A DNA stretch of 32,000 nt from Opitutales bacterium. GTDB taxonomy: Bacteria > Verrucomicrobiota > Verrucomicrobiia > Opitutales > PNEW01. Every line of letters begins with the position of its first letter. Within the stretch, counting starts at the first letter, position 1. Shown here piece after piece: positions 4,216 through 22,755 of this stretch. The stretch spans positions 30,001 to 62,000 of the forward strand of contig CBDCNV010000001.1 in the NCBI GenBank assembly GCA_965219535.1, in the 5' to 3' direction. Under the pieces are notes generated by a model. It had not been told where the DNA came from and ran no database searches. It worked only from the letters and a program-made list of their open reading frames with translations. A program made the translations under genes and the position numbers.

Positions 4216-4216
4216 G

Positions 4217-5455: not shown

Positions 5456-5470
5456 ATGAGTTAACCTGTG

Positions 5471-5493
5471 TATGCGATGATGCGGATACGCAG
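5471..5493 (+). repeat. Repeat R7 copy
   Basis: TATGCGATGATGCGGATACGCAG, 16 bp after the stop at 5455. Confidence 0.65.
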
Positions 5494-5506
5494 ATATATC
5501 CATCAA

Positions 5507-5518: not shown

Positions 5519-5527
5519 TTCCCTTTA

Positions 5528-5579
5528 GTCATTGCGAGGAGCAAGGCGACGCGGCTACCAACTCCCTCGCAATGACAAT
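5528..5579. repeat. Repeat R2, short hairpin form
   Basis: GTCATTGCGAGGAG-20 nt-CTCCCTCGCAATGACAAT. Confidence 0.75.
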
Positions 5580-5660
5580 AAGGTGAATGTGTTAATGTGT
5601 GTATGAGATTAGGTAGGGAAGGCTGTACTCAATGCCTTTTATTACGACATATCTTTAAAC

Positions 5661-5783
5661 GCGGTAGGGACACCGCGTTCCACCTTATTGCATTATTCAT
5701 TGTTACAGGGTGGAGCGGGCTGTCCCAGCACGCTTCTTTATTAATTATTTACGATTAACGCGGTAGGGACACCGCGTTCCACC
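5661..5783. repeat. Repeat R3 triple: variant arm (5661-5684), inverted canonical arm (5709-5733), variant arm (5760-5783)
   Basis: GCGGTAGGGACACCGCGTTCCACC / GGTGGAGCGGGCTGTCCCAGCACGC / GCGGTAGGGACACCGCGTTCCACC. The middle arm can pair with either flank. The loops are AT-rich. Confidence 0.8.
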
Positions 5784-7293: not shown

Positions 7294-7339
7294 TTTATAG
7301 TAAACTCACCGCCGAGTCGCAGCGTTCGCGGAGATTTTT

Positions 7340-7405
7340 CGATTGCGGATTTGGAGGATGTTGAGCTTCTCCCTTGATTCGATTGCGGATTGCAAATTGT
7401 CGATT
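7340..7405 (-). repeat. Heptad arrays, CGATTG orientation (two blocks, 7340-7354 and 7376-7405)
   Basis: CGATTGCGGATTTGG and GATTCGATTGCGGATTGCAAATTGTCGATT (period 7). Lies downstream of the stop at 7293. Confidence 0.8.
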
Positions 7406-7410
7406 TTTTT

Positions 7411-7483
7411 TTGTCATTGCGAGGAGCAACGCGACGTGGCAATCCAGGGGGACTTACATTTAGCAATAGACATCCCCCTGGAA
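7411..7483. repeat. Repeat R2, alpha arm plus inner hairpin (right arm truncated)
   Basis: TTGTCATTGCGAGGAGCAACGCGACGTGGCAATCCAGGGGGA...CCCCCTGGAAT. Confidence 0.8.
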
Positions 7484-7488
7484 TGAAA

Positions 7489-7518
7489 GATGTCGCCATC
7501 GGCTCGGAAGTGGCTATC
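7489..7518 (+). repeat. Repeat R6 unit (GATGTCGCC..GGCTCGGAAGTGGCTATC)
   Basis: Matches the units at 22529..22613. It ends in the GTGGCTATC tail shared with R4. Confidence 0.7.
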
Positions 7519-7520
7519 TC

Positions 7521-7582
7521 TTATCGACAATCGGAAATCCACAATCGGTTGTGGCTATCTTTTATCGACTATCTTCAATCGT
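7521..7582 (+). repeat. Heptad array, CAATCG orientation, abutting a start codon
   Basis: TTATCGACAATCGGAAATCCACAATCGG..TTGTGGCTATC..TTTATCGACTATCTTCAATCGTATA, then ATG 7586. Confidence 0.8.
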
Positions 7583-7585
7583 ATA

Positions 7586-8758
7586 ATGAATAAACCATTA
7601 AAAGTAGGGATACTCGGTGTGGGGCAGCGTGGTCTTCAACACTTGAAAGCGCTGTGGCAGTTGCAGTCCGAGGGGCTGGTCGAAATAACGGCGTTGACGG
7701 ATTCGTTCGCGGCCAATCTCGATGGTGATAAGATAAGAAGTTTCGTTCCCGACTACCGTGAGGATAATATAAAGTTGACGACCACTTTCGACGAACTGAT
7801 CGCCGAGAACAAACCCGATGTGCTATACCTGGCAATACCACCCAATCTCCACCGCGGGGAAGTAATTAGCGCAGCACAGGCAGGCATACATCTTTTTGTT
7901 GAGAAACCCATGAGCCTCTACCTCGACGAGGCAATCGAAATGGAAACGGCGATCAAAGAAGCCGGTGTTTATTCCGCGGTTGGTTTCCAGCAAAGATTTG
8001 AACCCCGCCATGAAATGGTAAAGGAATTTCTATCCGACAAACGCGTGATTCAGGCAAATTACACTTTTCACACGCCTATAGAATTTCACAATGTTAAACA
8101 CATGCCCACAGAAACCGTTGGTGGACCCACCAATCGGATATGGACTGCAAGCCGTGCCTGGACGGGAACAACAGCGGTTGAAAACGGGATTCACACGCTC
8201 GATCTATGGCGTTACTGGTTGGGTGATGTAAATTGGGTACAGGCGAATTATGTCAATCGTCTGCCGAACGAGATTATCGAGGGAGCCGATAATCCTCATT
8301 CTTATAATATCTTTTTTGGATTTGAGAATGGCGTAGTTGCGAACATGGCACTTTCACGTCTGCGCCGCGTCTACAACACCTATCTCGATCATCAAATTCT
8401 TTGGAACGAAGGGCGGCTTGTGCTTAATCCGGATGAATTTGTATCTTATCATTACGAGGGCGTCTATCCACCGGAAATACTTCCCGATGACTCCCAAATT
8501 CGTCATTCACTTAGTGTCGACCCGGTAAACGATACACTTTTAGATTATTCAACCTTGGGAATAAGTCGTAATTTTATAGAGGCTATTATCGCACAATCTC
8601 CAAAAAATATTCGTTCTCCATTTTCAGACGCGATGAATAGTTTGACTGCAGTGATCGCTGCCAATGTTTCAGATTCTATGGATGGTACGCGTATATATCT
8701 TGAGGATCTCATCACAGATGAAAATTATGCGCCGCATCGCGCGAAAAAAGACAGTTAA
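7586..8758 (+). CDS. Gfo/Idh/MocA-family NAD(P)-dependent oxidoreductase
   Basis: Rossmann N-terminus KVGILGVGQRGLQH and EKP motif (LFVEKPMSL). Start moved to ATG 7586 because the 7490 extension only translates spacer repeats. Confidence 0.85.
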   Translation: MNKPLKVGILGVGQRGLQHLKALWQLQSEGLVEITALTDSFAANLDGDKIRSFVPDYREDNIKLTTTFDELIAENKPDVLYLAIPPNLHRGEVISAAQAGIHLFVEKPMSLYLDEAIEMETAIKEAGVYSAVGFQQRFEPRHEMVKEFLSDKRVIQANYTFHTPIEFHNVKHMPTETVGGPTNRIWTASRAWTGTTAVENGIHTLDLWRYWLGDVNWVQANYVNRLPNEIIEGADNPHSYNIFFGFENGVVANMALSRLRRVYNTYLDHQILWNEGRLVLNPDEFVSYHYEGVYPPEILPDDSQIRHSLSVDPVNDTLLDYSTLGISRNFIEAIIAQSPKNIRSPFSDAMNSLTAVIAANVSDSMDGTRIYLEDLITDENYAPHRAKKDS

Positions 8759-9699
8759 TGAAATTATTAATCTATCCGGCATTAGACAAAAATGAGGTGG
8801 AAGAAATTGCTTCGGTATCCGACGAGGTAGAAATTCTAAATATCAACTCCGAAGAGGAAGCGCTTCAAGAAATCGAAGCCATCGATGCTATTTACGGCTC
8901 AATTACTCCCGCTTTATTGGAGAGATCGAGGAAGTTGAAATGGATTCAGACACCGATCATTGGCCTGGAAAATTATATGTTCCCCGCCTTAATCAAGAGT
9001 GATATCAAAATCACTAACATGGCCGGTATCTTCAGCGATGTGATTGCCGACCACACATTGGCTTACATTTTAATGTTCGCCCGCGGGTTTCACGTCTATA
9101 TGCGCAAACAACTCGCGAGAAACTGGGATCCCGGTGTTCCTGTCATTCATCTCGCCGATCAAACATTGGGAATTATCGGGCTCGGCGGGATCGGGATGGG
9201 AATTGCCAGTCGCGGCTCTGCCTGCGGGATGCGGGTTATCGCAACGGATGCAAAGCAGCGGGAAAAACCCGACTTCGTCAACGCATTGTGGGAGAACGAT
9301 AAGCTCAATGATCTTCTCGAGGAATCTGATTTCGTCGTCAGTTGCGTCCCCCATAGCCCTGAAACGGTTAAGCTAATCGGTGAGGAGCAACTACAGCGAA
9401 TGAAGAAGACCGCTTATTTTATCAATATTTCACGTGGGGTCGTCGTGGATTTAGCCGCATTAACGCGAGCCCTGGAAACAAAAACGATTGCCGGCGCTGG
9501 CCTCGATGTCTTTGAGACTGAACCGCTGCCCTCAGATCATCCCCTTTGGGAAATGGAAAACGTAATCATTACTCCTCACATCGCTGGGGCCAGTGCCTAC
9601 ATTCAGCGACGGCGCGTCGCTACGTTAAAAGAAAACCTGCGACGCTATATCTCGGGGGAACCGCTCCAGAATGTCGTAGACCGCAAGAAGTGGTTCTAG
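8758..9699 (+). CDS. D-isomer-specific 2-hydroxyacid dehydrogenase
   Basis: GIIGLGGIGMGIA, SRGVVVD, LDVFETEPLP, TPHIAG. The start overlaps the upstream stop (TAATG). Confidence 0.9.
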   Translation: MKLLIYPALDKNEVEEIASVSDEVEILNINSEEEALQEIEAIDAIYGSITPALLERSRKLKWIQTPIIGLENYMFPALIKSDIKITNMAGIFSDVIADHTLAYILMFARGFHVYMRKQLARNWDPGVPVIHLADQTLGIIGLGGIGMGIASRGSACGMRVIATDAKQREKPDFVNALWENDKLNDLLEESDFVVSCVPHSPETVKLIGEEQLQRMKKTAYFINISRGVVVDLAALTRALETKTIAGAGLDVFETEPLPSDHPLWEMENVIITPHIAGASAYIQRRRVATLKENLRRYISGEPLQNVVDRKKWF

Positions 9700-9743
9700 C
9701 GATTGTCGATTTCCGATTTGCGATTTTCGATTGAACCTAGCGG
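9700..9743 (-). repeat. Heptad array, CGATTG orientation, plus R9 (GATTGAACCTAGCGG)
   Basis: CGATTGT CGATTTC CGATTTG CGATTTT CGATTG (perfect period 7) starts 1 nt after the stop. R9 recurs at 22339..22353 and inverted at 20224..20239. Confidence 0.85.
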
Positions 9744-9795
9744 ATACTAAAAGCTTATATAAACACTATGACCGATAAGCGTTAGGCTCTTTCCC

Positions 9796-9830
9796 CAAAT
9801 CGACAATCGGCAATCGGCAATCGTAAATTG
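9796..9830 (+). repeat. Heptad array, CAATCG orientation, abutting the stop of the minus-strand gene
   Basis: C AAATCGA CAATCGG CAATCGG CAATCGT AAATTG. In the sense of gene 9831..12089 it reads CGATTG after the stop. Confidence 0.85.
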
Positions 9831-12089
9831 CTATGGCGTGACTGTATAATATTGATTGATGGCGGGATTGTTTACGCGTGTTGTCCGGCCATCGGGCCAG
9901 CGGACTTCAAAGTATGCAACCGATTCATCCTCACCTATACCAAAATGTTTTTGCAGGGAATGCTGGGCGAGATGGGAATCACCGGTAACCACGGATTGAA
10001 TTTGTGCACCGCTATCACTAACAACCGTGATTTTAGCCCCGAAAGGTGAGAACCCTTTTCCCTCGGGTAAACGAACGCCCACCCAGTTACTGTTCGTTGG
10101 CCATAAATTTTGATAGACGTGTAGATCTCGCGTTTGTTTCATCCAATCAACCGAAGTGACAATGAGATCGGGTCGTCCATCGTTGTCTAAATCATCCGTC
10201 ACTACAGTGCGTGAATCGTAAGCAAAAGCAGCACCCATGAGAAATGAAACATTAATAAAACCATTCCCATCGAGGTTCATATAAAGCACGTTTTTTTCAT
10301 AGGGGTTCCACCCACCTTTAGCTTCAGTTCCAAAATTCAGTCGTGTATTGCTGAATAAATTCTCGAGCGCCGGATTATTTTCGGAATTACCCGAATAGAT
10401 GTCCTGCGTCCAAAATACACTGCAGTAGTCTTCACATGTTTCCATGGAATAATTTCCATTGGCTATATAAATATCCTGCGTTCCATCCGAATCGAAATCA
10501 AATGTGCTCATCCCCCAACTCCAGCCTGTGCGATTCACCTGTTCAATGAAAACCGGTTGCCGGTAGGTCCCCTCAGCTGAGGCAAGATACATCCGGTTAC
10601 CGTAGCCCATTGGCATCCGCATATTTGTGATCTCTTCCCTATCCTCACGACCTACACCCATACTATCAAGTCTTCGGGCCGTCGTGGAACCCATGCCGGC
10701 CATGTAAAAGTCCAGACGACCATCACGATTGTAATCCCCGAATGAATGGGACATGCCAAAGGCACTGCGCTCATCTATCGCCGAGGAAGTCACATCGGTA
10801 AAAGTACCATTACCCCGGTTATAATAAACATCGGCCCCGGAAAAATCACTGACGACAAGTAAATCAAGCGTGTTATCGCTGTTGAGATCGAGAAATGAAC
10901 TGCTATAGGTTCGCCGATGGCGTTTGGCTGCAAGTCCTGCACTTTCCGTTTGGTCTTTAAATCTTCCGCCTCCCTGGTTCACCAAGAGATAGGATGGGTA
11001 GCCGTCATTGGCGTCATAAAAAGGTGTAGGCATCTGCCCGGAAAAATATGGCGGCTTATATTGTCCTACCCAAATATCAAGTAACCCGTCATTATTAATA
11101 TCCCCAGCGGTTATCGCCCATGAATTTCTAAATGGCTCGACGGTTGCCAATATTGATTTTCCCACGGAGCTGTAACGTCCCTCTGCATCCATTTCATAGA
11201 GGACCGGATACTCATCGGCGATAGTCAGGAAATCCGGGCGGCCGTCACCAGTCAGGTCTGCGATCAAACTGACACCAATCCGCCTTGTCGGATAATCGCA
11301 AAAGGTATCTCTTTCAAAATTAAAGTCCCCTTTGTTCCAATAGACTACATTTCCTTCGGGCAGAATAATTTCAGAAAGTCCGTCTTCATTTAAATCATAG
11401 ATGATAACATTGCGAAAAGCATTGTCACTTAGCGTGCTTCTCGCCCTGAGACGCTCGTGAAATACCGGACCCGCACTTCTTCGCAGGATATTAAAATCAG
11501 TGGCGTCGATTGTAAGGGGATAATAGTTTCCGTGTCTGTCCTTATCATCACTCCAGAAAATATTTAAACGGACGTTCAGGATGTATCGCTCTTTTTCATC
11601 GAGTGTCGTGACATGCAAGGTTGCTTTCACTTCCGATTGATTTCCCGTTTCAACGGTTTCGAATTTTACATGGTGCCATTCGGATTGTATCAATCGATAG
11701 CGAAGCTTCAATTCTTCCACCCAGGAAACCCAATCCTTCTGCTTGTATACTTTTCCCTCATCCTTGAATTGATATTTCAAAATTCCCCACTTCAATTCCT
11801 CTTTTGTGAATTCTTCTCCCAGGCTTAACTTCCCGAATTTAAATTCACTCAAAGCCGAAAGCTTTTCATCGCTGACACGTATGCTATCCCAAAGTTTTAT
11901 GAAGTATTTTTCATACTGCTGCGCCAATTTTTCATTCGCCCAAATAGTTTCATTTAATTGTTTGCGCTCATTCTCCAGTTGCCTGACCGTACTTTCTATA
12001 TCAGAGGTACCTGCCCCAAACAGGAGCTGGGCATAAATTGCACCGAGTATAAGGTAAAACTTAATGCGTTGGGTTCCTGTCAGGTTCAT
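9831..12089 (-). CDS. FG-GAP/VCBS-repeat protein with C-terminal ASPIC/UnbV domain (CRTAC1-like)
   Basis: Repeated Ca-binding DxNxDGxxD loops (GDINNDGLLD, GDYNRDGRLD, DFDSDGTQD, DDLDNDGRPD). UnbV-like tail ...GAKITVVSDSGAQIQSVVTGDSHLAQHS...EVRWPDG. N-terminal hydrophobic anchor. Confidence 0.85.
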   Translation of the reverse strand: MNLTGTQRIKFYLILGAIYAQLLFGAGTSDIESTVRQLENERKQLNETIWANEKLAQQYEKYFIKLWDSIRVSDEKLSALSEFKFGKLSLGEEFTKEELKWGILKYQFKDEGKVYKQKDWVSWVEELKLRYRLIQSEWHHVKFETVETGNQSEVKATLHVTTLDEKERYILNVRLNIFWSDDKDRHGNYYPLTIDATDFNILRRSAGPVFHERLRARSTLSDNAFRNVIIYDLNEDGLSEIILPEGNVVYWNKGDFNFERDTFCDYPTRRIGVSLIADLTGDGRPDFLTIADEYPVLYEMDAEGRYSSVGKSILATVEPFRNSWAITAGDINNDGLLDIWVGQYKPPYFSGQMPTPFYDANDGYPSYLLVNQGGGRFKDQTESAGLAAKRHRRTYSSSFLDLNSDNTLDLLVVSDFSGADVYYNRGNGTFTDVTSSAIDERSAFGMSHSFGDYNRDGRLDFYMAGMGSTTARRLDSMGVGREDREEITNMRMPMGYGNRMYLASAEGTYRQPVFIEQVNRTGWSWGMSTFDFDSDGTQDIYIANGNYSMETCEDYCSVFWTQDIYSGNSENNPALENLFSNTRLNFGTEAKGGWNPYEKNVLYMNLDGNGFINVSFLMGAAFAYDSRTVVTDDLDNDGRPDLIVTSVDWMKQTRDLHVYQNLWPTNSNWVGVRLPEGKGFSPFGAKITVVSDSGAQIQSVVTGDSHLAQHSLQKHFGIGEDESVAYFEVRWPDGRTTRVNNPAINQYYTVTP

Positions 12090-12169
12090 AAATAAAGGCT
12101 AAACTTTATAGTGACGCTGCTAACTGTCAATCGATAGACCGAAATCTAATATCCACGCGGTTCTGACAT

Positions 12170-14479
12170 TCACCCATCCCCCTCGTGGTGATGCCCGCTC
12201 TCAGTTTTATGAAAATCAAAAGAATGAAGCGCTAGCTTCCGGGGTTGTTTTTTATTTTCTACGATCTCGTAACAAGAGTTGGTGTCCAGATCGTGATAGA
12301 TTTGCTTTTTCCTCGAGTGTGGCCAGATAATTTCAACCGCCTCAATTGATCTCACCTTACCTAAACCGATCTCCTGTCGAAAGGGTGACGCGCCAAAACT
12401 CCCGCCCGCACTTACGGTGCGATGAATTTCGCGCTTACTGCCATCCTCGGCGGTCAGGAGAACTTTAATTCGCGATCCCAAAGCCGAACGATTAGAGGAC
12501 TCACCGACAAGTTTCAGCGTCAGCCACTTGTTTTCATTACCGGGATTTTCGAAGAGTACGTTCATATAATTATCGCCGGTAAAAGCACCACCGATGACTG
12601 AATATATATCTTGATCGCCATCGTGATCTATATCACCAAAAGAAACACCGTGCCCTTTTTGTAAATGCCCAAACCCACCGGATGTTGTAACATCCTGAAA
12701 AAGCATCCCTTTTTCATTACGAAACATACGGTTGGGGACAAGCATGGCAAAACTAGGGTTCCCCGTTCCAACATAAAAATCCAACCATCCATCGTTATCC
12801 AGATCACCATAATTACAACCCATACCCAGTACGACCTTGTCCAGGTTCATCGATTCTGAAACCTCAGCGAAAGTACCATCACCCTTGTTGCGATAGAGGC
12901 GCATCGTTTCCGCGTTATGGGGTTGATCTAAATAGTCCGCTACGATACCGCCCACACCATTATTTATGTATCCTCCCCCGTCTGTCCGATACCCACAGAC
13001 AAAAAGGTCTTCCCAACCGTCATTGTTAAAATCCCAAAACCAGGTGGGAAAACTGTACTTCGGTTCAGACAGGCCGGCTGTTTTACCGAGTTCGGTAAAA
13101 TTCCAGGCGCTGGGATCATCGGCAGAATCTTTAATCGGACCATCATTGCGGAAGAGCAAATTTGCATCGCCAAAAATGGATAAAAAAAGATCAGGCCGCC
13201 CGTCATTGTTATAGTCCCCACTGGTAACGCCCTTCACAAATTTACTCACATCAATCCCGACAGACTTTGCGCATTCGGTAAATGTTCCATCACGATTATT
13301 ACGGTACAATTCGCAGGGATTTTTTTCATTATCGTTTAGGGTTTCGTTTCCGATAAAGAGATCCAGCCAACCGTCATTGTTATAATCCCACCATACCGCG
13401 GTTTGCGTTGGATGAGAACTCAGCAATCCCGCCGCTTCTGTTAGATCGGAAAAAGTACCGTTACCATTATTGCGCAAAAGCGAGTTGGGGATATTACCTA
13501 GTTCACCAAATTCTGAAAACCACCCGCCGCGCAAAATAAAAATATCCGTATGCCCGTCGTTATTGTAATCAGCGTGCACCATATTTAATCCGCCTACCAG
13601 TCCCTCTAGTCCGGCCTCGATTGTTTTTTCATCAAAAGTGCCGTCGCCATTATTTCTGAAATACCTGACCTGATCCTTAACGCCCATCGATGAGACGATA
13701 AGATCGAGAAAATTATCCCCATCGAAGTCCTCCATTACGCTGCCCCCTGCTAGTGCGTTGACATCAAGACCTAGATCCGGCGCCCGATCATAAAACCGAT
13801 TCATCTCATAGTCGGAGACAAATAATTCAGGTGGCAGGGTCCAGCGCGAATAAAGTTTTTTCGGATACTCCCCCACCGTCATTGAAGCGATATTAAGCAG
13901 CCAAATGGCTTCTAAATCGTTGGGATGGAGCAAAAGGTAATCGTTTAAAATCGCAATTGCTCCGCGCGAACCCCGTTGCTGCTTATGGATACCTGCTTTT
14001 GTAATCGGGAAAAGACAGGAATCCGGATTGTGAAGCGATATACAGTTTTCCTGTTCTCCGAGCCGAAGATAGCTCACTGCGAGCGTGAGATGTATAGCAC
14101 TCTCTTCTGTTTCCTGAAGGACGATGATATGCTCATCGATTTCATTTAACACTTCTTCAATTACTTCAATCGCCACTTCACTCTGACCGGATTGGAGTAA
14201 TTGCCGACCATACTCATATTTTAAAATGATGTAGTCTTTAGATCCTCGCGGCGGGGTCCCATTAGCTTCCGCTTCTTGAAGGAGTTGATGAAGGTAATCT
14301 ACCCTCGCATCATTATAATAAGCGTTTAAGCGATTGTCCGGGTGCTCGGCAATTTCCTCAAGACGCTGAACCATGGCCAATGTGCCCTCAACATCGTCCT
14401 GGGCATTTTTTCGTCCGCATCCCATCACTAAGATCGCACAAACGAGATACGCGCATCGCCATTTATGAAATTTAATCAT
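12170..14479 (-). CDS. Probable lipoprotein: TPR-like N-region plus FG-GAP/VCBS repeats plus ASPIC/UnbV domain (CRTAC1-like)
   Basis: AILVMGC lipobox-like signal. Many DxNxDGxxD loops. UnbV tail ...GSRIKVLLTAEDGSKREIHRTVSAGGSFGASP...IIWP. Confidence 0.85.
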   Translation of the reverse strand: MIKFHKWRCAYLVCAILVMGCGRKNAQDDVEGTLAMVQRLEEIAEHPDNRLNAYYNDARVDYLHQLLQEAEANGTPPRGSKDYIILKYEYGRQLLQSGQSEVAIEVIEEVLNEIDEHIIVLQETEESAIHLTLAVSYLRLGEQENCISLHNPDSCLFPITKAGIHKQQRGSRGAIAILNDYLLLHPNDLEAIWLLNIASMTVGEYPKKLYSRWTLPPELFVSDYEMNRFYDRAPDLGLDVNALAGGSVMEDFDGDNFLDLIVSSMGVKDQVRYFRNNGDGTFDEKTIEAGLEGLVGGLNMVHADYNNDGHTDIFILRGGWFSEFGELGNIPNSLLRNNGNGTFSDLTEAAGLLSSHPTQTAVWWDYNNDGWLDLFIGNETLNDNEKNPCELYRNNRDGTFTECAKSVGIDVSKFVKGVTSGDYNNDGRPDLFLSIFGDANLLFRNDGPIKDSADDPSAWNFTELGKTAGLSEPKYSFPTWFWDFNNDGWEDLFVCGYRTDGGGYINNGVGGIVADYLDQPHNAETMRLYRNKGDGTFAEVSESMNLDKVVLGMGCNYGDLDNDGWLDFYVGTGNPSFAMLVPNRMFRNEKGMLFQDVTTSGGFGHLQKGHGVSFGDIDHDGDQDIYSVIGGAFTGDNYMNVLFENPGNENKWLTLKLVGESSNRSALGSRIKVLLTAEDGSKREIHRTVSAGGSFGASPFRQEIGLGKVRSIEAVEIIWPHSRKKQIYHDLDTNSCYEIVENKKQPRKLALHSFDFHKTESGHHHEGDG

Positions 14480-14527
14480 GATCTAATAAAGTAGTACTGA
14501 GAAGAACATGAAAATTAAAGCAAGAAA

Positions 14528-14554
14528 CGATTTTCGATTGCCGATTTTCGATTG
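14528..14554 (-). repeat. Heptad array, CGATTG on the plus strand (CAATCG in the sense of the divergent gene 12170..14479)
   Basis: CGATTTT CGATTGC CGATTTT CGATTG, perfect period 7. Confidence 0.85.
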
Positions 14555-14575
14555 TCATTGCGAGGAGCAATCCAG
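14551..14575. repeat. Repeat R2, truncated alpha arm
   Basis: ATTGTCATTGCGAGGAGCAATCCAG (internal deletion relative to full copies). Confidence 0.7.
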
Positions 14576-14617
14576 AAAGCAAAATAAATAAGGTTAGGTA
14601 CATGATAATAGCAAATG

Positions 14618-14689
14618 GGTGGAACGGGCTGTCCCAAGCGCGTTCTTCTTATTACTTTTAATAAGCGTGCTGGGACAGCCCGCTCCACC
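14618..14689. repeat. Repeat R3 inverted pair
   Basis: GGTGGAACGGGCTGTCCCAAGCGCG - AT-rich loop - GCGTGCTGGGACAGCCCGCTCCACC. Confidence 0.85.
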
Positions 14690-14765
14690 AATATCAATCT
14701 AATCCCTTTGAAAGAAGTCATCCCGCATCGGTGTGACTTAATCGTGACATTCATCTATAAAAATC

Positions 14766-14797
14766 ATCTTGTGTTTTTTGTGCCTCTTGTGGCTATC
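14766..14797 (+). repeat. Repeat R4 32-mer
   Basis: ATCTTGTGTTTTTTGTGCCTCTTGTGGCTATC, 35 bp upstream of ATG 14832. Confidence 0.85.
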
Positions 14798-14798
14798 T

Positions 14799-14831
14799 CT
14801 TCAATCCTCATTCGCAAATCGTAATTCGTAA
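14799..14831 (+). repeat. Degenerate heptad array, CAATCG orientation, abutting a start codon
   Basis: CTTCAATCCTCATTCGCAAATCGTAATTCGTAA, then ATG. Confidence 0.7.
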
Positions 14832-16409: not shown

Positions 16410-16450
16410 TGCGAATACGCGTAAATGCGATGATGCGATAAAGCGGCTGC
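16410..16450 (+). repeat. Repeat R7 copy (extended)
   Basis: GCGAATACGCGTAAATGCGATGATGCGATAAAGCGGCTGC, directly after the stop. Confidence 0.7.
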
Positions 16451-16536
16451 TGGTTGAAATTTAGAAATCAGGATAATACCGAGTTTATAATTATAAATGA
16501 TTGGATATTTGTAGACACGGACATTGCACTCCTCCT

Positions 16537-16646
16537 ATTGTCATTGCGAGGGAGGCGATTGCCTACCACGGCAATCTAGGGGAATGTCTATTGCGTAATT
16601 TAGTCCCCCTGGATTGCTTCGTCGCGTTGCTCCTCGCAATGACAAT
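16537..16646. repeat. Repeat R2, full ~110-bp imperfect palindrome
   Basis: ATTGTCATTGCGAGGGAGGCGATTGCCTACCACGGCAATCTAGGGGA...TCCCCCTGGATTGCTTCGTCGCGTTGCTCCTCGCAATGACAAT. Confidence 0.9.
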
Positions 16647-16654
16647 TTGAATAC

Positions 16655-16669
16655 ATTCGACAATCGACA
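16655..16669 (+). repeat. Heptad array, CAATCG orientation, abutting a start codon
   Basis: ATTCGACAATCGACA, then ATG 16670. Confidence 0.7.
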
Positions 16670-17629
16670 ATGTTTCGCATCTTACTCACGACGACATCGT
16701 ACCAGGATACTCCGGGTGAACATCACCAATTGCTGGAAGACGCTAACTTTGACATTGTGCGTGAACGCGGACCGCTCAGCGAAGAGCAGATTCTGGAATG
16801 TGTCGGTGATATCGATGGCTTCCTCTGCAGCGATGATGCGATCACGCGCGCGGTAATTGATAAATCTCTCCCCCGGCTTAAAGTCATCAGTAAATACGGT
16901 ATCGGTCTCGACAAGATCGATGTAAACTACGCCACAGAGAAAAAAATTCCCGTCCTTTTCACTCCGGGAGTTAACCATACGACGGTAGCAGAACATACAT
17001 TCGGCCTTCTCTTGGGCCTGGAACGTAAAATAGTTACCGAGGCAAATTTTACCCGCGGGGGAGATTGGAAACGACTCACCGGTAACGAAATTATGGGGAA
17101 GACGATAGGCATTGTCGGACTCGGAAGAATTGGTCAGGAAGTAGCCATACGCGCAAAAGCATTCGGTCTGAATGTCATCGCTTATGGTAATTACTGGGAT
17201 GAAAGCTTTGCCAGTGATTTTAAAATTGAGCGTTGTGAATCATTAAAAGACCTTATTAAAAACGCGGATATAATAAGTCTTCACACTAAACTGAATGATA
17301 AAACCCGTCACATGATTGATGCGGAGTGCATCGATTTAATGAAGCCGGGTGTGATTATTTTAAATACCGCGCGCGGTGAACTCATCGATACTGCCGCACT
17401 GCTCCAGGCATTAGAAAGTGATCATGTCGGGGGTTATGGCGCCGATGTTCTCGATCAGGAACCACCCCCACCCGATCACCCGCTGTTAACGGCAAAAAAC
17501 TGTATTATCACCCCCCACATCGGTTCGCGCACCTACCAAAGCGTAGAGCGACAGGCCGGTATGGCTACCCGTAATCTCATCAATTTCTTAGAGGGAAAAC
17601 CACCCCTCGCGCAGGCCAATGATTGCTGA
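16670..17629 (+). CDS. D-isomer-specific 2-hydroxyacid dehydrogenase (phosphoglycerate/glyoxylate-reductase-like)
   Basis: GIVGLGRIGQEVA, TARGELID, ADVLDQEPPPPDHPLL, TPHIGS. Confidence 0.9.
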   Translation: MFRILLTTTSYQDTPGEHHQLLEDANFDIVRERGPLSEEQILECVGDIDGFLCSDDAITRAVIDKSLPRLKVISKYGIGLDKIDVNYATEKKIPVLFTPGVNHTTVAEHTFGLLLGLERKIVTEANFTRGGDWKRLTGNEIMGKTIGIVGLGRIGQEVAIRAKAFGLNVIAYGNYWDESFASDFKIERCESLKDLIKNADIISLHTKLNDKTRHMIDAECIDLMKPGVIILNTARGELIDTAALLQALESDHVGGYGADVLDQEPPPPDHPLLTAKNCIITPHIGSRTYQSVERQAGMATRNLINFLEGKPPLAQANDC

Positions 17630-17639
17630 TTTGGGAATG

Positions 17640-17660
17640 CGGATTGCGGATTGAAATCAA
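17640..17660 (-). repeat. Heptad array, CGGATTG x2 plus AAATCAA
   Basis: CGGATTG CGGATTG AAATCAA, 11 bp after the stop at 17629. Confidence 0.75.
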
Positions 17661-17661
17661 T

Positions 17662-17769
17662 TTGTCATTGCGAGGAGCAACGTGACGAAGCAATCCAGGG
17701 GGATACCGGACACGCATTGACAGCTCCCTGGATCACCGCAGTCGGCTTCGCCTCCTTCGCGATGACAAT
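17662..17769. repeat. Repeat R2, full ~108-bp imperfect palindrome (alpha arm plus beta arm)
   Basis: TTGTCATTGCGAGGAGCAACGTGACGAAGCAATCCAGGGGGA...GCTCCCTGGATCACCGCAGTCGGCTTCGCCTCCTTCGCGATGACAAT. Confidence 0.9.
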
Positions 17770-17796
17770 TTAGATTATATCACGGACGCGATCAAC

Positions 17797-17837
17797 CGTC
17801 GCCCGTTGGGCTATGGCCGACAGGCAGCCCGCTCCAC
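17797..17837 (-). repeat. Repeat R8 (reverse orientation) fused to a partial R3 arm
   Basis: The reverse complement of 17797..17824, CCTGTCGGCCATAGCCCAACGGGCGACG, matches 21235..21260. GACAGGCAGCCCGCTCCAC resembles the R3 right arm. Confidence 0.65.
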
Positions 17838-17869
17838 TTATGAGCAAAGTAATTTAATTCACTCTTTTC

Positions 17870-17901
17870 ATCTTGTGTTTTTTGTGCTTTTTGTGGCTAT
17901 C
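17870..17901 (+). repeat. Repeat R4 32-mer
   Basis: ATCTTGTGTTTTTTGTGCTTTTTGTGGCTATC, 18 bp upstream of ATG 17919. Confidence 0.9.
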
Positions 17902-17918
17902 TAATTCGACAATCGCTC
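17902..17918 (+). repeat. Heptad array, CAATCG orientation, abutting a start codon
   Basis: TAATTCGACAATCGCTC, then ATG. Confidence 0.7.
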
Positions 17919-19010
17919 ATGCTTGAAAAATTTTACGCCGTTCCGGAAAGCACACATAACACACTGGTAGAGGCCGCTTATCTCAAGCGTGGTTACACCA
18001 GGGACGAGGTAATACACGCCGTCCGTGTTGCGGCCAATGCATCACGCCATGGTATTCGCACTCACAATGCGATTAAGGCATTACATCTCGATCTCCACTA
18101 CGGAAGCGGGGCAGGCGGATGCCTGCCAGGCGCAGTTATTGAAAAAAAGCCCTCGCGTTTTGCTGCGGCAGAAATTTGGAACTGCAATCAAAAACTGGGG
18201 CAAGCCGTTGCTTCTGAAGCGATGGAAAAATGTATCGAAATGGCGGAAAAATACGGTGTGGGGTTAATCAGCGTCGATAACGCTTTTCATTATCTGTGGG
18301 GCGGCGGTTATGTCATGGAAGCCGCGAAAAAAGGTTATATCGCTTATACAAATTGTACCGCCGCTTTAGCTGAGGTCGTTCCTTTCAAAGGTGTGACCGC
18401 TACCCTCGGAACTAATCCACATAGTTGGGGATTCCCCACCACCGAGGTGATTGGTTTTCCCCTCGTTATCGATTGGGCAACCTCGGTCATATCCACCGGT
18501 AAAGTGCAGCAACTCAGTCGTGAGGGGTTGCCCCTTCCTCCCAATGCTGCGGTCGATAGTGATGGCAACGTTACCACTGACCCGTCGCAAGTCGCGGCCA
18601 TGCTTCCCTTCGGGGAGCACAAGGGTTATGCATTGTGCCTCATGGATGAGCTCATCGCTGCTTTAATCGGAGGGAGCCTCCCCACACTGCGCGGTCGATG
18701 GACCGATGATGACGAAAAACATACTCCCTGCTTTTTCTTTCAAGTTATTCACCCCGATGCGCTCAACGCCGGTGCCTTTGCCCGGGGTCGGACGCAAACA
18801 GAAAATGTAAAAGCCGTCTTTGACGACATATTCGGTCACGGCAATGAAGACTGTATGTTCCCCGGTCAACTCGAGGCCGAAGCGGCTCAGCGGTCGGAGA
18901 AGCACGGCGGCCTTCTCTTTAGTGAAAATGAGATCCAGGCTTTTAATGAAATTGCTAACGAATGCGATCAGCCACCCTGGAAGATTGATAATTTTAAAGT
19001 GGCTGAATAA
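17919..19010 (+). CDS. Ldh_2-family (malate/L-lactate/sulfolactate/diketogulonate-type) NAD(P)H-dependent dehydrogenase
   Basis: GTNPHSWGFP and FGEHKGYALCLMDELIAALIGG, typical of the Ldh_2 family. The substrate cannot be assigned from sequence alone. Confidence 0.85.
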   Translation: MLEKFYAVPESTHNTLVEAAYLKRGYTRDEVIHAVRVAANASRHGIRTHNAIKALHLDLHYGSGAGGCLPGAVIEKKPSRFAAAEIWNCNQKLGQAVASEAMEKCIEMAEKYGVGLISVDNAFHYLWGGGYVMEAAKKGYIAYTNCTAALAEVVPFKGVTATLGTNPHSWGFPTTEVIGFPLVIDWATSVISTGKVQQLSREGLPLPPNAAVDSDGNVTTDPSQVAAMLPFGEHKGYALCLMDELIAALIGGSLPTLRGRWTDDDEKHTPCFFFQVIHPDALNAGAFARGRTQTENVKAVFDDIFGHGNEDCMFPGQLEAEAAQRSEKHGGLLFSENEIQAFNEIANECDQPPWKIDNFKVAE

Positions 19011-19035
19011 ACATTTATTGTAGATATATAAAATT

Positions 19036-20121
19036 ATGGCCATTCAAACACTCGACTCCTCACAAACAAAATATGATCTACTCTCCCTCGGCGAGTGCAT
19101 GATCCGCCTGTCGCCCGGTGGTCACGGACGCCTTGAATATGCTCAAAATCTGGAGGTATGGGCTGGCGGCGGTGAATATAATGTTGCCTATGCTGTTACG
19201 CGCCTGGGACTGCGAGGAGGATTTGTCAGTAAGTTGCCCGACAACCCTGTAGCCAGAATCTTAATTAACCACGCACGCGCGGTGGGCTTGGATACTTCCA
19301 ACATCATCATGGAAGAATACGACGGTATCGGACGCGCAGGTCGCGTCGGTCTTAATTTTACCGAAGTAGGCACAGGAGTGCGGGCTTCAGTGACGATGTA
19401 TGACCGTGGACAAAGCGCGATATCCCTCGCCGATGCATTAGAATTTGATTATAAAGATATCTTCGAAAAACAGAAAACGCGTTGGTTACATACGGGTGGC
19501 ATAATGAGCGCGCTCAGTCCCCAGTGCGCGAAAATAGTCAATGAAGCGGCGGCGGCGGCACACGCAAACGGCACCATAGTCAGTTACGACCTCAATTTCC
19601 GCTCAAAGTTATGGAGTTCTGAAGATGCCATCGCCGCGAACACAAAAATCGCGCCCCATGTAGATGTCCTCATCGGTAATGAAGAGGATTTTCAAAAAGC
19701 GCTGGGATTTGAAGTCGAAGGCGTGGATGAAGATTTAAAGGAACTCCCGATTGAAAGTTTTAAAAGGATGGTAGAACGGGTCGTCGAAACCTACCCTAAT
19801 ATCAAAGTCGTCTGCACAACACTGCGCGAAGTTAAAAGTGGCCTGATCAATAATTGGAGCGGTATTCTCTGGCACGAAGGCAGTTTTTATGAATCGAACC
19901 GATTCGAAGATCTTGAAATTGAGGACCGAGTCGGAGGAGGTGACGGATTTTCCAGCGGTGTCGCTTATGGATTTCTCAATAATATGGACCCGCAGGAAAT
20001 CGCGAACTTCAGCGCCGCCCACGGTGCACTCTTGCAATCCACCGGTGGAGATACTTCACAAATTACCCTCGAAGAAGTCGAACACGTCGCCCAAGGCGGC
20101 AGCGCCCGGATCAAAAGATAA
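19036..20121 (+). CDS. PfkB-family sugar(-acid) kinase, 2-dehydro-3-deoxygluconokinase-like
   Basis: GECMIRLSP, GGGEYNVAYAVTRLG, PfkB signature DRVGGGDGFSSG. Lies 25 bp after the Ldh_2 gene, so they probably form an operon. Confidence 0.85.
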   Translation: MAIQTLDSSQTKYDLLSLGECMIRLSPGGHGRLEYAQNLEVWAGGGEYNVAYAVTRLGLRGGFVSKLPDNPVARILINHARAVGLDTSNIIMEEYDGIGRAGRVGLNFTEVGTGVRASVTMYDRGQSAISLADALEFDYKDIFEKQKTRWLHTGGIMSALSPQCAKIVNEAAAAAHANGTIVSYDLNFRSKLWSSEDAIAANTKIAPHVDVLIGNEEDFQKALGFEVEGVDEDLKELPIESFKRMVERVVETYPNIKVVCTTLREVKSGLINNWSGILWHEGSFYESNRFEDLEIEDRVGGGDGFSSGVAYGFLNNMDPQEIANFSAAHGALLQSTGGDTSQITLEEVEHVAQGGSARIKR

Positions 20122-20138
20122 ATCGATTGCCAAATTGG
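20122..20138 (-). repeat. Heptad block, CGATTG orientation, directly after the stop
   Basis: ATCGATTGCCAAATTGG. Confidence 0.65.
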
Positions 20139-20170
20139 GATAGCCACAAAAGGCACAAAAAACACAAGAT
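20139..20170 (-). repeat. Repeat R4 32-mer, inverted orientation (the only inverted copy in the window)
   Basis: GATAGCCACAAAAGGCACAAAAAACACAAGAT is the reverse complement of ATCTTGTGTTTTTTGTGCCTTTTGTGGCTATC. It has 1 mismatch to 17870..17901. Confidence 0.9.
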
Positions 20171-20182
20171 AGATTTAGAGAA

Positions 20183-20206
20183 TGGAGGGCCACGCTCCGT
20201 CGTGGC
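20183..20206 (+). repeat. Repeat R5 copy
   Basis: TGGAGGGCCACGCTCCGTCGTGGC, identical to 5865..5888. Ends 46 bp upstream of ATG 20252. Confidence 0.85.
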
Positions 20207-20223
20207 TGATTAAGCTTTTAATA

Positions 20224-20247
20224 ACCGCTAGGTCCAATCAACAATTG
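20224..20247 (+). repeat. Inverted R9 plus weak CAATC block
   Basis: ACCGCTAGGTCCAATCAACAATTG. ACCGCTAGGTCCAATC is the reverse complement of GATTGGACCTAGCGGT, which compares with GATTGAACCTAGCGG at 9729 and 22339. Confidence 0.6.
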
Positions 20248-20251
20248 AAAC

Positions 20252-21031
20252 ATGGCATATTTAAACAAACTTTTTGGGCTTGAGGGTAAAACTGCGGTCA
20301 TTGTCGGGGGGACGGGTGTGCTCTGCGGGGCGATGGCTGAGGGGTTGGCTGGGGCCGGTGCCGAAGTGGTGCTCGTCGGACGTGACGAAGATAAAGCTAA
20401 TACGCGTCTCAGCGCCATTCATGAATACCAGGAGAAAGCCTACTTTGAACGCGCTGACGTGACACATAAAGAGGAAATCGAAGATTTGCTCACACGTGTA
20501 ATTAAGAAATCGGGGAAAGCGGACATTCTCGTAAATGGGGCAGGAACGACTGCACCCACTCCTATTGTAGATATTAAAGAAGATGAGCTGGATAATATTC
20601 TCAACATTAACTTGAAATCGATTTTTTTCGCGAGCCAGGTATTTGGAAGCTACATGATCGAAAATAATATTAAAGGGAGCATGATTAATATCGGCTCGAT
20701 GTCAGGACTCGTACCCCTTTCACGCGTTTTTGCCTACTCAGCAACTAAAGCTGCCGTCCATAATATATCAAAAAATCTCGCCCGCGAATGGGCTGCACAG
20801 AACATCCGCGTAAATACAATCGTCCCTGGATTCTTTCCCACCGATTTAAACCGTAAATACCTCGTCGGCGAACGGCTCGAAAATATAATGCGGCACACAC
20901 CCATGAATCGGTTTGGCGATGCCAGTGAACTTATTGGCGCAACCTTACTTCTTGCCAGCAATCAAGCGGGGTCATTCATCACCGGCAGCGAAATTGTCGT
21001 CGACGGCGGGTTTTCCTCAATGACGATTTGA
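20252..21031 (+). CDS. SDR-family oxidoreductase (KduD/gluconate-5-dehydrogenase-like)
   Basis: GGTGVLCG glycine-rich loop, NGAG, YSATK (YxxxK), PGFFPT. Confidence 0.85.
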
Positions 21032-21035
21032 CAAT

Positions 21036-21054
21036 TTTCGATTGTCGATTTGGT
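21036..21054 (-). repeat. Heptad array, CGATTG orientation, after the stop
   Basis: TTTTCGATTGTCGATTTGG. Confidence 0.75.
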
Positions 21055-21101
21055 GTTAAAATTTATGTGATTAAGTATTATTTATATGATTAAGGCGTTT
21101 G

Positions 21102-21180
21102 GGTGGAACGGGCTGTCCCTAGCACGTTTTATCTATTATTAAAGTTAAATAAAAAGCGTGCTGGGACAGCCCGCTCCACC
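21102..21180. repeat. Repeat R3 inverted pair
   Basis: GGTGGAACGGGCTGTCCCTAGCACG - AT-rich loop - GCGTGCTGGGACAGCCCGCTCCACC. Confidence 0.9.
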
Positions 21181-21212
21181 TATGATTAATATAATATATT
21201 TCGCTATTCACT

Positions 21213-21272
21213 CTTATGTTTTATGTGCCTCTTACCTGCCGGCCATAGCCTTGGCGACGGCTGGTGGCTATC
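21213..21272 (+). repeat. Repeat R4 interrupted by R8 (21235..21260)
   Basis: CTTATGTTTTATGTGCCTCTTA | CCTGCCGGCCATAGCCTTGGCGACGG | CTGGTGGCTATC. The R4 head and tail are separated by a nested unit. Confidence 0.7.
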
Positions 21273-21276
21273 CCTT

Positions 21277-21320
21277 CACTCGCAAATCGCAAATCGACAA
21301 TCGGCAATCGCAAATCGAAT
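21277..21320 (+). repeat. Heptad array, CAATCG orientation (longest copy), abutting a start codon
   Basis: CACTCG CAAATCG CAAATCGA CAATCGG CAATCG CAAATCG AAT, then ATG 21321. Confidence 0.9.
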
Positions 21321-22307
21321 ATGTCTTCCTTAGCCATTCGCTATCATCAGTACGGTAATCCCGCAGAGTGTCTGGTTGCGGAGGAAGTATCGCTGCCCGA
21401 AGTGGGGCCGGACCAAGTGCTCATTAATCTGTTGGCAGCGTCAATCAACCCATCGGATTTCGGTATGATAATGGGTAGCTACGGCCGAAAGAAGGAACTT
21501 CCCGCTGTAGCCGGTCGTGAAGGCGTCGGTGAAATCATGGAGGTCGGAAAAAATGTGAATCACCTAAAACCCGGCCATTGGGTGCAATTCCCTGATGCTC
21601 TCGGCACCTGGCAGGAAACCTGTATAGCCGATGCTGTGGGTTTGAAAGTTTTACCCGAAGGTCTTCCTCTCGAAATGGCGGCAACGTTATTTATCAATCC
21701 GCCGACCGCATGGCGGTTACTACACGGTTTTGTCGAATTAAAAAGTGGCGATTGGATAATTCAAAACGCAGCTAACTCCGCGGTGGGCATCTTTGTCATT
21801 CAGCTCGCGAAAAAATTAGGGGTTAAAACGCTGAACATCGTGCGCCGAAAAGAGCTTGAGAGTGAACTCAAAGAGCAGGGGGCTGATGAAGTATTTACCG
21901 AAGAGGATGATTACTGGAAATTGATAAAAGATATTACCGACGGGAAAGGAATTAAGCTCGCGCTGAATTCTGTCGGCGGTGAAAGCGCGATCAATCTTCT
22001 TAAAGCACTGTCTCCGGGTGGAACACATGTCACTTTTGGCGCGATGAGTTTTGACTCCATTCGTTTTCCTACGCGCCAGTTAATTTTCGATGAAATAAAA
22101 CTCACCGGTTTCTGGGTGGACGGCTGGCTGCGCTCCCATTCCAAGGAGGAAGTCGACTTCATGTTCGAGGAGATCTATGCCCTCATCAAAGAGGAAACGT
22201 TTTCCACAATCGTAGAAAAATGGTATTCCTTATCCGCGTTCAAAGAGGCCCTCGAACACGCAGCAAAGCCCCGCTTCGGAAAAATTCTTTTCCACGGAAA
22301 AGCATGA
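21321..22307 (+). CDS. MDR-superfamily NAD(P)H-dependent reductase (quinone oxidoreductase / 2-enoyl thioester reductase-like)
   Basis: AGREGVGEIMEVG, NAANSAVGIFVIQLAKKLG. Start moved to ATG 21321 because the 21264 extension (..NRKSTIGNRKS..) only translates the heptad array. Confidence 0.85.
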   Translation: MSSLAIRYHQYGNPAECLVAEEVSLPEVGPDQVLINLLAASINPSDFGMIMGSYGRKKELPAVAGREGVGEIMEVGKNVNHLKPGHWVQFPDALGTWQETCIADAVGLKVLPEGLPLEMAATLFINPPTAWRLLHGFVELKSGDWIIQNAANSAVGIFVIQLAKKLGVKTLNIVRRKELESELKEQGADEVFTEEDDYWKLIKDITDGKGIKLALNSVGGESAINLLKALSPGGTHVTFGAMSFDSIRFPTRQLIFDEIKLTGFWVDGWLRSHSKEEVDFMFEEIYALIKEETFSTIVEKWYSLSAFKEALEHAAKPRFGKILFHGKA

Positions 22308-22353
22308 TTCAATTGTCGATTTGCGATTGTCGATATCCGATTGAACCTAGCGG
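22308..22353 (-). repeat. Heptad array, CGATTG orientation, plus R9
   Basis: TTCAATTG TCGATTTG CGATTGT CGATATC CGATTG AACCTAGCGG, directly after the stop. Confidence 0.85.
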
Positions 22354-22390
22354 TCACCCAAAATTATTCCCTTATTTAGTAATTCTCCTC

Positions 22391-22495
22391 TTGTCACCGC
22401 GAGGTTGCTTGTCAGCCGTGGCGATCCAGGGGCCTGCCAATACGTGACCGTTATCCCCCTGGATTGCTTCGTCGCGTTGCTCCTCGCAATGACAT
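22391..22495. repeat. Repeat R2, full ~105-bp imperfect palindrome
   Basis: TTGTCACCGCGAGGTTGCTTGTCAGCCGTGGCGATCCAGGGGCC...TCCCCCTGGATTGCTTCGTCGCGTTGCTCCTCGCAATGACAT. The right arm is identical to that of 16537..16646. Confidence 0.9.
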
Positions 22496-22505
22496 AATGA
22501 AATTA

Positions 22506-22679: not shown

Positions 22680-22755
<76 letters not shown>

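Follow-up and report, generated by a model that had tools for sequence, protein, structure and literature searches.

Small palindromic intergenic repeats of bacteria, among them the REP/BIME/REPIN, Correia and ERIC families, are co-transcribed with the neighbouring genes, form hairpins and affect the processing or stability of mRNA. Their sequences are fixed and unique, as in the GTAG head of REP that is recognised by RAYT transposases, and are not tandem heptamers. Heptanucleotide repeats termed STRR were reportedly described in cyanobacteria by Mazel in 1990, and the PF05635/TIGR02436 family has, to our knowledge, been known since the 1990s only from intervening sequences (IVSs) of rRNA. The present analysis concerns a 32,000-nucleotide stretch of an Opitutales bacterium (assembly GCA_965219535.1, contig CBDCNV010000001.1, positions 30,001 to 62,000), termed the window, in which arrays of tandem 7-nt units (heptads) line the edges of intergenic spacers. 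These spacer elements resemble REP/BIME/REPIN, Correia and ERIC sequences as palindromic intergenic hairpin repeats and differ from them in being built from tandem heptamers. No Y1-transposase domain or RAYT gene was present among the Pfam hits in about 100 kb of the lineage, where no dedicated REP/REPIN test was made.

The IVS of the Coxiella 23S rRNA measures 428 nt and carries an S23p (PF05635) open reading frame (ORF) in a loop closed by a 28-bp stem of terminal inverted repeats; its 5' arm contains two or three tandem heptamers GACAGAT, depending on the strain, RNase III cuts at the first repeat, and related ORFs occur in IVSs of Leptospira and Brucella (PMC4990558). The window elements share with this system complementary ends with a closing stem (about 28 bp in the IVS, predicted by minimum-free-energy (MFE) folds in the window), arms of tandem heptamers that vary in number, a loop that may carry a PF05635 gene, and a position in which they would be passive inside a host transcript. 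They differ in lying between protein-coding genes and not in helix 25 or 45 of rRNA, in the unit (xGATTKN instead of GACAGAT), and in the lack of an ORF in the window copies, the loops of which contain other small repeats.

TAACTGA heptamers just upstream of start codons, including those of ribosomal-protein operons, have been described in Beggiatoaceae, Cyanobacteria and Bacteroidetes (MacGregor 2015, PMC4679880). Like the arrays of the window, they form short arrays (2 to 6 units) of one orientation a few nt from starts, in genomes poor in Shine-Dalgarno (SD) motifs, in ribosomal-protein operons and in distant phyla. In contrast to the inverted xGATTKN/NMAATCx pairs of the window, they consist of another unit, are arranged in direct orientation (169 direct, 1 indirect), lack a complementary partner past the preceding stop and have no reported link to PF05635. 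Repeats of the type TTTTGAA/TTCAAAA occur at start codons of Nostoc (preprint). Among the long simple-sequence repeats of prokaryotes, those with heptanucleotide units are the most frequent, as far as the summary of Mrazek 2007 in PMC4679880 goes. Such repeats and the STRR resemble the window arrays as intergenic tandem heptamers with slippage variation near starts or promoters, but are not described as inverted arms that bound a spacer or abut stop and start codons. In an incomplete coverage of the literature, neither xGATTKN arms nor their pairing across a spacer nor an association with PF05635 outside rRNA was found described, and an exact-sequence literature search with six array strings returned nothing relevant.

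A preliminary description of the window had reported period-7 arrays of fixed polarity at the spacer edges, and had proposed that they bracket every gene and that the 5' and 3' arrays of one mRNA pair. The observation was partly confirmed and the interpretation partly supported. With moderate confidence, the arrays are regarded here as the arms of ORF-less, IVS- or MITE-like palindromic spacer elements (MITE, miniature inverted-repeat transposable element) of the form [xGATTKN]n - any loop - [NMAATCx]n with slippage-prone heptad arms; a palindromic design of this kind accounts for the fixed polarity. The arms in the window are listed below, together with one loop.

7340..7405, + strand: left arm of the BNR/GFO spacer, a degenerate CGATTGC/GGATTKN run, 46 nt past stop 7293; sequence shared with relatives L122/L123
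7521..7582, + strand: right arm, NMAATCG units interleaved with two GTGGCTATCT modules, ending 3 nt before GFO ATG 7586
9700..9733, + strand: left arm, five exact CGATT units, from the first base past stop 9699 of the 2-hydroxyacid dehydrogenase gene; predicted MFE pairing partner 9796-9830
9796..9830, + strand: right arm, four exact AATCG plus AAATTG, to the last base before the minus-strand FG-GAP stop 9831
14528..14554, + strand: left arm, four exact CGATT, 48 nt from the minus-strand FG-GAP start 14479; same place in L126 and L128
14555..14798, no strand: example of a loop with nested unrelated repeat modules; other modules between the same arms in the relatives
14799..14831, + strand: right arm, AATCC/ATTCG/AATCG/ATTCG units, reaching sulfatase ATG 14832; edge array in 4/4 genomes
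16655..16669, + strand: right arm, two units ATTCGAC AATCGAC, then AATG; start codon in heptad phase
17637..17660, + strand: variant left arm, GCGGATT x2 then GAAATCA, beginning 8 nt past stop 17629
17902..17918, + strand: right arm, two units ATTCGAC AATCGCT, before Ldh_2 ATG 17919
20122..20138, + strand: left arm, one exact and one degenerate unit, directly past PfkB stop 20121; five exact units in L122
20231..20251, + strand: degenerate right arm, CCAATCA ACAATTG AAAC, before SDR ATG 20252; absent from the preliminary description
21032..21054, + strand: left arm, CAATTTT CGATTGT CGATTTG, from the first base past SDR stop 21031; five units in L122, about seven in L128
21277..21320, + strand: right arm, six units (five exact AATCG), then AAT and ADH ATG 21321
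22308..22343, + strand: left arm, TTCAATTGT, then CGATT units, then GAACCTAGCGG as at 9733, past ADH stop 22307

The arrays named in the preliminary description were present at their positions, and such arrays were far above chance, although those at 16655 and 17902 consist of only two units, that at 20122 of one exact and one degenerate unit, and that given as 17640 is a GCGGATT variant. Exact CGATTNNCGATT occurred 17 times on both strands of the window, with 0.20 occurrences expected from dinucleotide shuffles, and a three-unit pattern with at most one mismatch occurred 18 times (0.01 expected). Period-7 arrays were called by Tandem Repeats Finder at 9707, 9798, 14528, 14812, 16653, 17621, 21280 and 22312. 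Tandem 7-nt units in at least three copies and above chance, as in heptad simple sequences, were thereby found. A strict caller (a minimum of three units at period 7, no more than one mismatch and two or more exact units) returned four CGATT arrays in the window, all at left spacer edges, and four AATCG arrays, three of them at right edges and one intragenic. The latter, at 3064-3082 (ATTCGAAAATCGATAATCG), is the sole intragenic array and is located in a minus-strand response-regulator ORF (2841-3257). A motif-blind period-7 detector was applied to the window and three relatives and yielded 16 segments, all intergenic, with none in 66 kb of coding sequence; it added the families GCGGATT (left)/AATCCGC (right), with the same polarity as CGATT/AATCG, and GGGTTCA (left).

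For comparison, relatives were taken as syntenic loci with one protein at 95% identity (L122, L123) or 86% identity (L126/L127, L128); L126 and L127 are two assemblies with an identical protein sequence. The genes of the window encode sugar- and sulfatase-type enzymes. Across the window and three relatives, CGATT arrays were located in the left half of spacers in 15:0 cases and AATCG arrays in the right half in 20:1 cases, the lone exception preceding a tRNA-Phe gene, so that the fixed polarity reported earlier was upheld. In these four genomes most arrays were separated from the codon by 0-3 nt at stops and by 2-4 nt at starts, and units of reverse polarity never numbered more than one at any gene edge. 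The start ATG was mostly in heptad phase (..AATCGAC AATG..); the AATCG strand contains no ATG, GTG or TTG, whereas CGATTG contains TTG.

Polarity had been described in gene sense, as a property of each gene. Since [CGATT...AATCG] is its own reverse complement, the strand of a gene gives no independent evidence, and the polarity, being strand-symmetric, belongs to the spacer ([CGATTKN]n - loop - [NMAATCG]n) and not to the gene. The sole free variable is inward versus outward orientation, and in the lineage of the window it is always inward. The arms were confined to the edges of long spacers and extended up to or into stop and start codons. Bracketing of every gene could not be maintained: no arrays were present at the GFO/2HA1 overlap (8758), in the 80-nt FG1/FG2 spacer (12090-12169) or in the 25-nt Ldh2/PfkB spacer (19011-19035), and the sulfatase 3' edge has a different repeat. 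Contact with the codon, also claimed before, was seen at 9700, 9830 and 22308 (within 2 nt of the stop) and at 21321 (last core, AAT, ATG), and was lacking at 7340 and 14528.

Other repeats occupied similar positions. A repeat of period about 7-8 (ATGCGAT/GCGGATA type) directly follows three stops (16410-16446, 4216-4262, 5456-5506), and at the orthologous sulfatase stop of the relatives GGGTTCA is repeated three to four times (L122 9758, L126 9787, L128 9581). Another inward heptad family has GATGCAG/GATCCAG past stops and CTGCATC-type units before starts and merges in phase into AATCG (L126 374-410, 15434-15470 and 3165-3195; L122 8095-8135).

Gene order was kept across the relatives and spacer interiors were not. 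Core and polarity were retained at orthologous edges down to 86% protein identity, and the place and polarity of the arrays stayed the same where the number of units shifted (2 to 8 at an edge). The array before the start of the 16670 gene comprises 2 units in the window, 3 in L122, 8 in L126, 7 in L127 and about 5-6 in L128; the difference of 8 versus 7 units separates two assemblies with identical protein. The interiors are mosaics of small hairpin repeats that differ wholly between genomes even at 95% protein identity. The loop 14555-14798 contains a truncated GTCATTGCGAGGAGCAA hairpin, a GGTGGAACGGGCTGTCCC...GGGACAGCCCGCTCCACC hairpin (14617-14691) and a TTGTG period-9 module (14764-14798). 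One module of about 130 nt was found between arms at non-orthologous spacers (window 20122-20251, L122 10961-11098).

Three small repeats recur in the window. A dispersed long-hairpin repeat (GTCATTGCGAGGAGCAACGCGACG..GCAATCCAGGGGGA ... TCCCCCTGGATTGC..CGTCGCGTTGCTCCTCGCAATGAC) was located at 7410-7490, 16535-16645, 17661-17760 and 22390-22500, also at 5525-5580 and 4316-4360; it nests directly within heptad arms in either orientation, with 88-95% complementarity among its copies. Another hairpin repeat, GGTGGAGCGGGCTGTCCCAGCACGC ... GCGTGCTGGGACAGCCCGCTCCACC, is present at 14617-14691, 21101-21182 and 5708-5745; its weak sub-threshold Rfam matches to animal microRNA models were taken as chance. 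The third repeat is a module with TTGTG three times at period 9 and GTGGCTATCT at its end; it is located immediately interior to right arms (14764-14798, 17868-17902, 21212-21233) and, when inverted, immediately interior to left arms (20139-20183). The module could hold a promoter; a sigma-70 scan does not single it out.

Whole-gene differences between relatives were seen at spacer boundaries. The GFO gene is missing in L128 (1193-1582, compared with 7294-8758 of the window), where the next gene bears its own 5' array. In L126/L127 a PDDEXK_3 gene is inserted (L126 13651-14641) between repeat copies of the CTCTGCG...CGCAGAG type. The sulfatase was called as two ORFs in three relatives (L126 8198-9777, L127 8207-9786, L128 8002-9572), which reflects either a pseudogene with a frameshift or an error in the long-read assembly.

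Single-strand MFE folds predicted pairing between the arms of the same spacer in six of seven window spacers. For the 131-nt spacer 9700-9830 the predicted fold had -42.9 kcal/mol, a z of -5.5 and 26 end-to-end pairs. Arm pairs from one spacer had a duplex energy of -21.0 kcal/mol, those from different spacers -21.2 kcal/mol (p = 0.51) and shuffled arms -10.2 kcal/mol. The arrays are thus complementary, as had been stated before, and would be contained in untranslated RNA beside the codons; the complementarity is generic, and the 5' and 3' arrays of a given gene are not specifically linked to each other. On the folding model, the natural pairing partners would be the two arms of one spacer, which are 9-300 nt apart and consecutively transcribed.

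An SD-like 4-mer was found upstream of just 3 of 43 genes in the lineage. Neither sigma-70 promoters (27 versus 24.8 expected) nor intrinsic terminators (20 versus 18.7 expected) were enriched. An Rfam search of the window at permissive E-values returned only tRNA-Phe and, in one loop hairpin, microRNA hits regarded as spurious; rRNA was not found.

Recurrence outside the lineage was assessed by scanning species-representative genomes with an exact four-unit pattern. At least 120 matches were obtained, with about one chance match expected in 596 Gb by our own estimate. By record titles, the matches listed belong to at least 8 phyla, including Acidobacteriota, Planctomycetota, Verrucomicrobiota, Chloroflexota, Bacteroidota, Cyanobacteria, Armatimonadota, Nitrospirota, Sumerlaeota and others. 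Many of these loci show the design of the window with a short loop, and pairs of the CGATT[K]N class were arranged as CGATT..AATCG in 19 cases and reversed in 2. Many further heptads occur at similar sites in other phyla. Minimal copies that lack an ORF were found in the S10 operon of Chloracidobacterium (L054, rpsJ-rplC-rplD-rplW-rplB), where the spacers rpsJ/rplC, rplC/rplD and rplW/rplB consist almost wholly of such a hairpin with arms 9-10 nt apart. The predicted energies are -24 to -39.5 kcal/mol (z down to -7.2), and the hairpins end 2-3 nt before the next ATG. As the conserved S10 cluster is expected to be co-transcribed, these copies probably lie in polycistronic mRNA and cannot be strong terminators.

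Arms of this kind enclose genes of the PF05635/TIGR02436 family ("23S rRNA intervening-sequence protein", a four-helix-bundle protein) in many phyla. Such a gene was present in the loop at five places selected by their arrays, namely L039 (twice), L118, L004 and the relative L126, in which the copy (20442-20934) is a frameshifted pseudogene. To avoid selection by arrays, 80 metagenome loci were collected by protein similarity and the flanks were scored. Upstream of the PF05635 genes CGATT was found in 37 of 74 cases and AATCG in 3 of 74; downstream, AATCG was found in 50 of 76 and CGATT in none. Both arms enclosed the gene in 28 of 70 loci and the reverse arrangement was never seen (0/70). Elsewhere in these loci 5 arrays were counted in 114 kb, which corresponds to an enrichment of roughly 50-fold or more beside the gene. 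Loci scored as "none" bear sister units (CTGATTG/CAATCAG and GGATTTT/AAAATCC, i.e. TGATT/GGATT variants). In 35 of 40 elements (19.8 expected), the variable base that precedes GATT was complementary to the one that follows AATC.

The host codons were found close to these elements as well: in 27 of 33 elements the distance of the host stop to the first unit was between -3 and +10 nt, the stop often being the TGA of a TGATT unit, and the host start was 1-24 nt past the last unit in 39 of 52, often as ..CAATG. PF05635 genes inside the arms have a gene-centred polarity opposite to that of host genes; the unit is therefore the spacer and not the bracketed gene. PF05635 frames run into the right arm (L039 3780-3806, L118 2277-2311 and many of L129-L208), with heptad-encoded tails ..SAIANRKSE... 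The Avd protein of diversity-generating retroelements (DGRs) binds RNA and forms a pentameric barrel of positive charge that is "similar to S23 ribosomal proteins" (bioRxiv 10.1101/2023.10.23.563531).

If the arrays are arms of spacer elements, the arm past a stop would pair on read-through with the arm before the next start, and a 20-35 bp interrupted duplex would close off the interior. By analogy with the ORF-bearing rRNA IVSs, the stem would most likely be cleaved by RNase III; the cistrons would thereby be separated, the loop removed and the downstream gene left with a short SD-free heptad leader. RNase III processing had been proposed before and is plausible in view of the Coxiella IVS (PMC4990558), with the difference that the duplex would span a spacer and not join the ends of one mRNA. 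As a second possibility, a ribosome terminating upstream could unmask the next start by translational coupling. Spread between spacers would likely occur by recombination between the generic arms or by some trans factor.

Several observations weigh against this explanation. No spacer-specific complementarity or co-evolution of arms was detected in the lineage of the window, and mismatches are frequent at two variable heptad positions, so that the stems are interrupted. The arms at 7340 and 14528 are 46 and 48 nt away from the codon, and the divergent spacer 14480-14831 cannot be on one mRNA without read-through. Across phyla, units of another class, CGATT[C/G]A, have the opposite arrangement (0 versus 8), and past stop codons both orientations are equally frequent (11 versus 11). 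The covariation of 35 in 40 elements is a count that ignores phylogenetic relatedness. The last ten residues of the query in the 80-locus search are array-encoded, although hits that stop short of this tail have arms too. No PF05635 ORF or remnant was found in the window spacers by a profile search of all open frames of at least 25 codons, and the window is tied to PF05635 only by the shared arm architecture and the L126 pseudogene. No target-site duplication and no mobility enzyme were seen.

As an alternative with a modest chance of being correct, the right-edge arrays may be SD-less leaders or sites for a single-strand nucleic-acid-binding protein (S1, Csp-like or other), the left-edge arrays being a by-product. 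On the 5' side this explanation is compatible with spacer elements. It is favoured by a crude gene-edge test across phyla, in which AATCG preceded starts in 14 cases (19 with ambiguous ones) and CGATT in 2 (5), stops showing no polarity, and by the more consistent retention of arrays at 5' than at 3' edges in the lineage. The phase of the ATG with the last unit, the absence of ATG, GTG and TTG from the AATCG strand and the lack of SD motifs in the lineage agree with it, and such roles have been proposed for other heptamers (MacGregor 2015, PMC4679880; Nostoc preprint). However, it explains neither the left-edge arrays of the lineage (15:0) nor the covarying paired arms around PF05635 genes, where CGATT was absent downstream (0/76). 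Genes behind short spacers manage without arrays, and no binding protein was identified.

It is unlikely, although it can coexist with a role in RNA, that the arms act at the level of DNA, either as terminal inverted repeats for a transposase or as homology handles by which spacer contents including PF05635 genes are exchanged. The complete replacement of interiors between persisting arms at 95% protein identity, the module of about 130 nt common to non-orthologous spacers and the generic nature of the arms would fit such exchange. Inverted termini are present; no duplication was seen flanking the minimal copies of Chloracidobacterium or the window copies, and no transposase was linked to them; neither was a pair of empty and filled sites found. 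The insertion sequence (IS) genes at 23125-23658 and 26879-28062 of the window have no relation to the arrays. For RecA-dependent exchange, the arrays, at 14-40 bp, are short substrates.

Neutral heptanucleotide microsatellites, made by slippage and filling free non-coding DNA up to the first constrained base with no RNA role or element identity, are a quite improbable explanation. In this case the change from 8 to 7 units between assemblies with identical protein, the other heptads at like sites (GGGTTCA, GATGCAG, GCGGATT and many in other phyla), the lack of spacer-specific complementarity and the general abundance of heptanucleotides among long prokaryotic repeats, as summarised from Mrazek 2007 in PMC4679880, would be expected. 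Against it stand the persistence of core and polarity at orthologous edges to 86% identity with the rest of the spacer replaced, the recurrence of the unit in at least 8 phyla (at least 120 matches versus about one by chance, by our estimate), the strict inverted pairing and the enrichment of roughly 50-fold or more beside PF05635 genes.

End-to-end pairing of the 5' and 3' arrays of one mRNA to protect or regulate the transcript, as envisaged in the preliminary description, is very unlikely: any 5' array can pair with any 3' array (about -21 versus -10 kcal/mol for shuffled arms) and a transcript starting inside a spacer loop would bear only its own two arrays, but the 5' arm has a partner in the spacer at a distance of only 9-300 nt that is transcribed directly ahead of it, the partner across the gene being 1-2.3 kb away and not specifically matched, the arms in the S10 operon are 9-10 nt apart, the PF05635 genes have the opposite gene-centred polarity, and many genes have one array only.

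Two further candidates were dropped. Integron attC sites were rejected on the basis of conserved syntenic housekeeping-type enzymes in both orientations and the absence of an integrase; repeated insertion and excision with a 7-bp target duplication would yield direct, not inverted, flanks.

The region 22.8-32 kb of the window contains no heptad arrays. A tRNA-Phe (GAA) gene is located at 22680-22755, downstream of a degenerate right arm. At about 28135-28190 a T-arm-like motif, GGATTCGAACCTACGACC, resembles a truncated tRNA that is not called by ARAGORN; it lies amid IS remnants, i.e. rve_3 (23125-23658) and transposase-like ORFs (26879-28062 and 31568-32000). With the tRNA-Phe gene, the tRNA-like sequence and the IS remnants, this region may be an old integration site. 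A 300-nt direct repeat with 76% identity (25690-25989 and 30618-30917) is contained in the large ORFs 24712-26400 and 29106-31337, the latter with Ig-like domains; the two ORFs are probably paralogues.

A wider form of the spacer-element explanation was also considered, and is put forward as a speculation with a small chance of being right. In it, xGATTKN arms would be pan-bacterial intervening elements of mRNAs and rRNA that are excised through their stem, the TIGR02436/PF05635 protein, similar in structure to Avd, with which the reverse transcriptases of DGRs have an RNA-binding partner, would be their own factor, binding the arms or the excised RNA and promoting spread, and the window copies would be non-autonomous.

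If the arrays are arms of palindromic spacer elements, the function-unknown family PF05635/TIGR02436 would gain a setting between two heptad arms, mostly amid co-directional host genes, and the arms and RNase III would be suggested as its partners. The heptamers at start codons of Beggiatoaceae and Nostoc and those of the Coxiella IVS would then share one explanation, namely repeat-built stems that join a stop to the next start. The idea is testable, as cultured carriers exist (Ereboglobus, Terrimonas and the genus Chloracidobacterium). In SD-less lineages a stem that ends 2-4 nt before the start would have to influence how the gene behind it is expressed, through either cleavage or coupling, and the finding would thus bear on the expression of operons, including ribosomal-protein operons, in Acidobacteriota, Planctomycetota, Verrucomicrobiota and their relatives.

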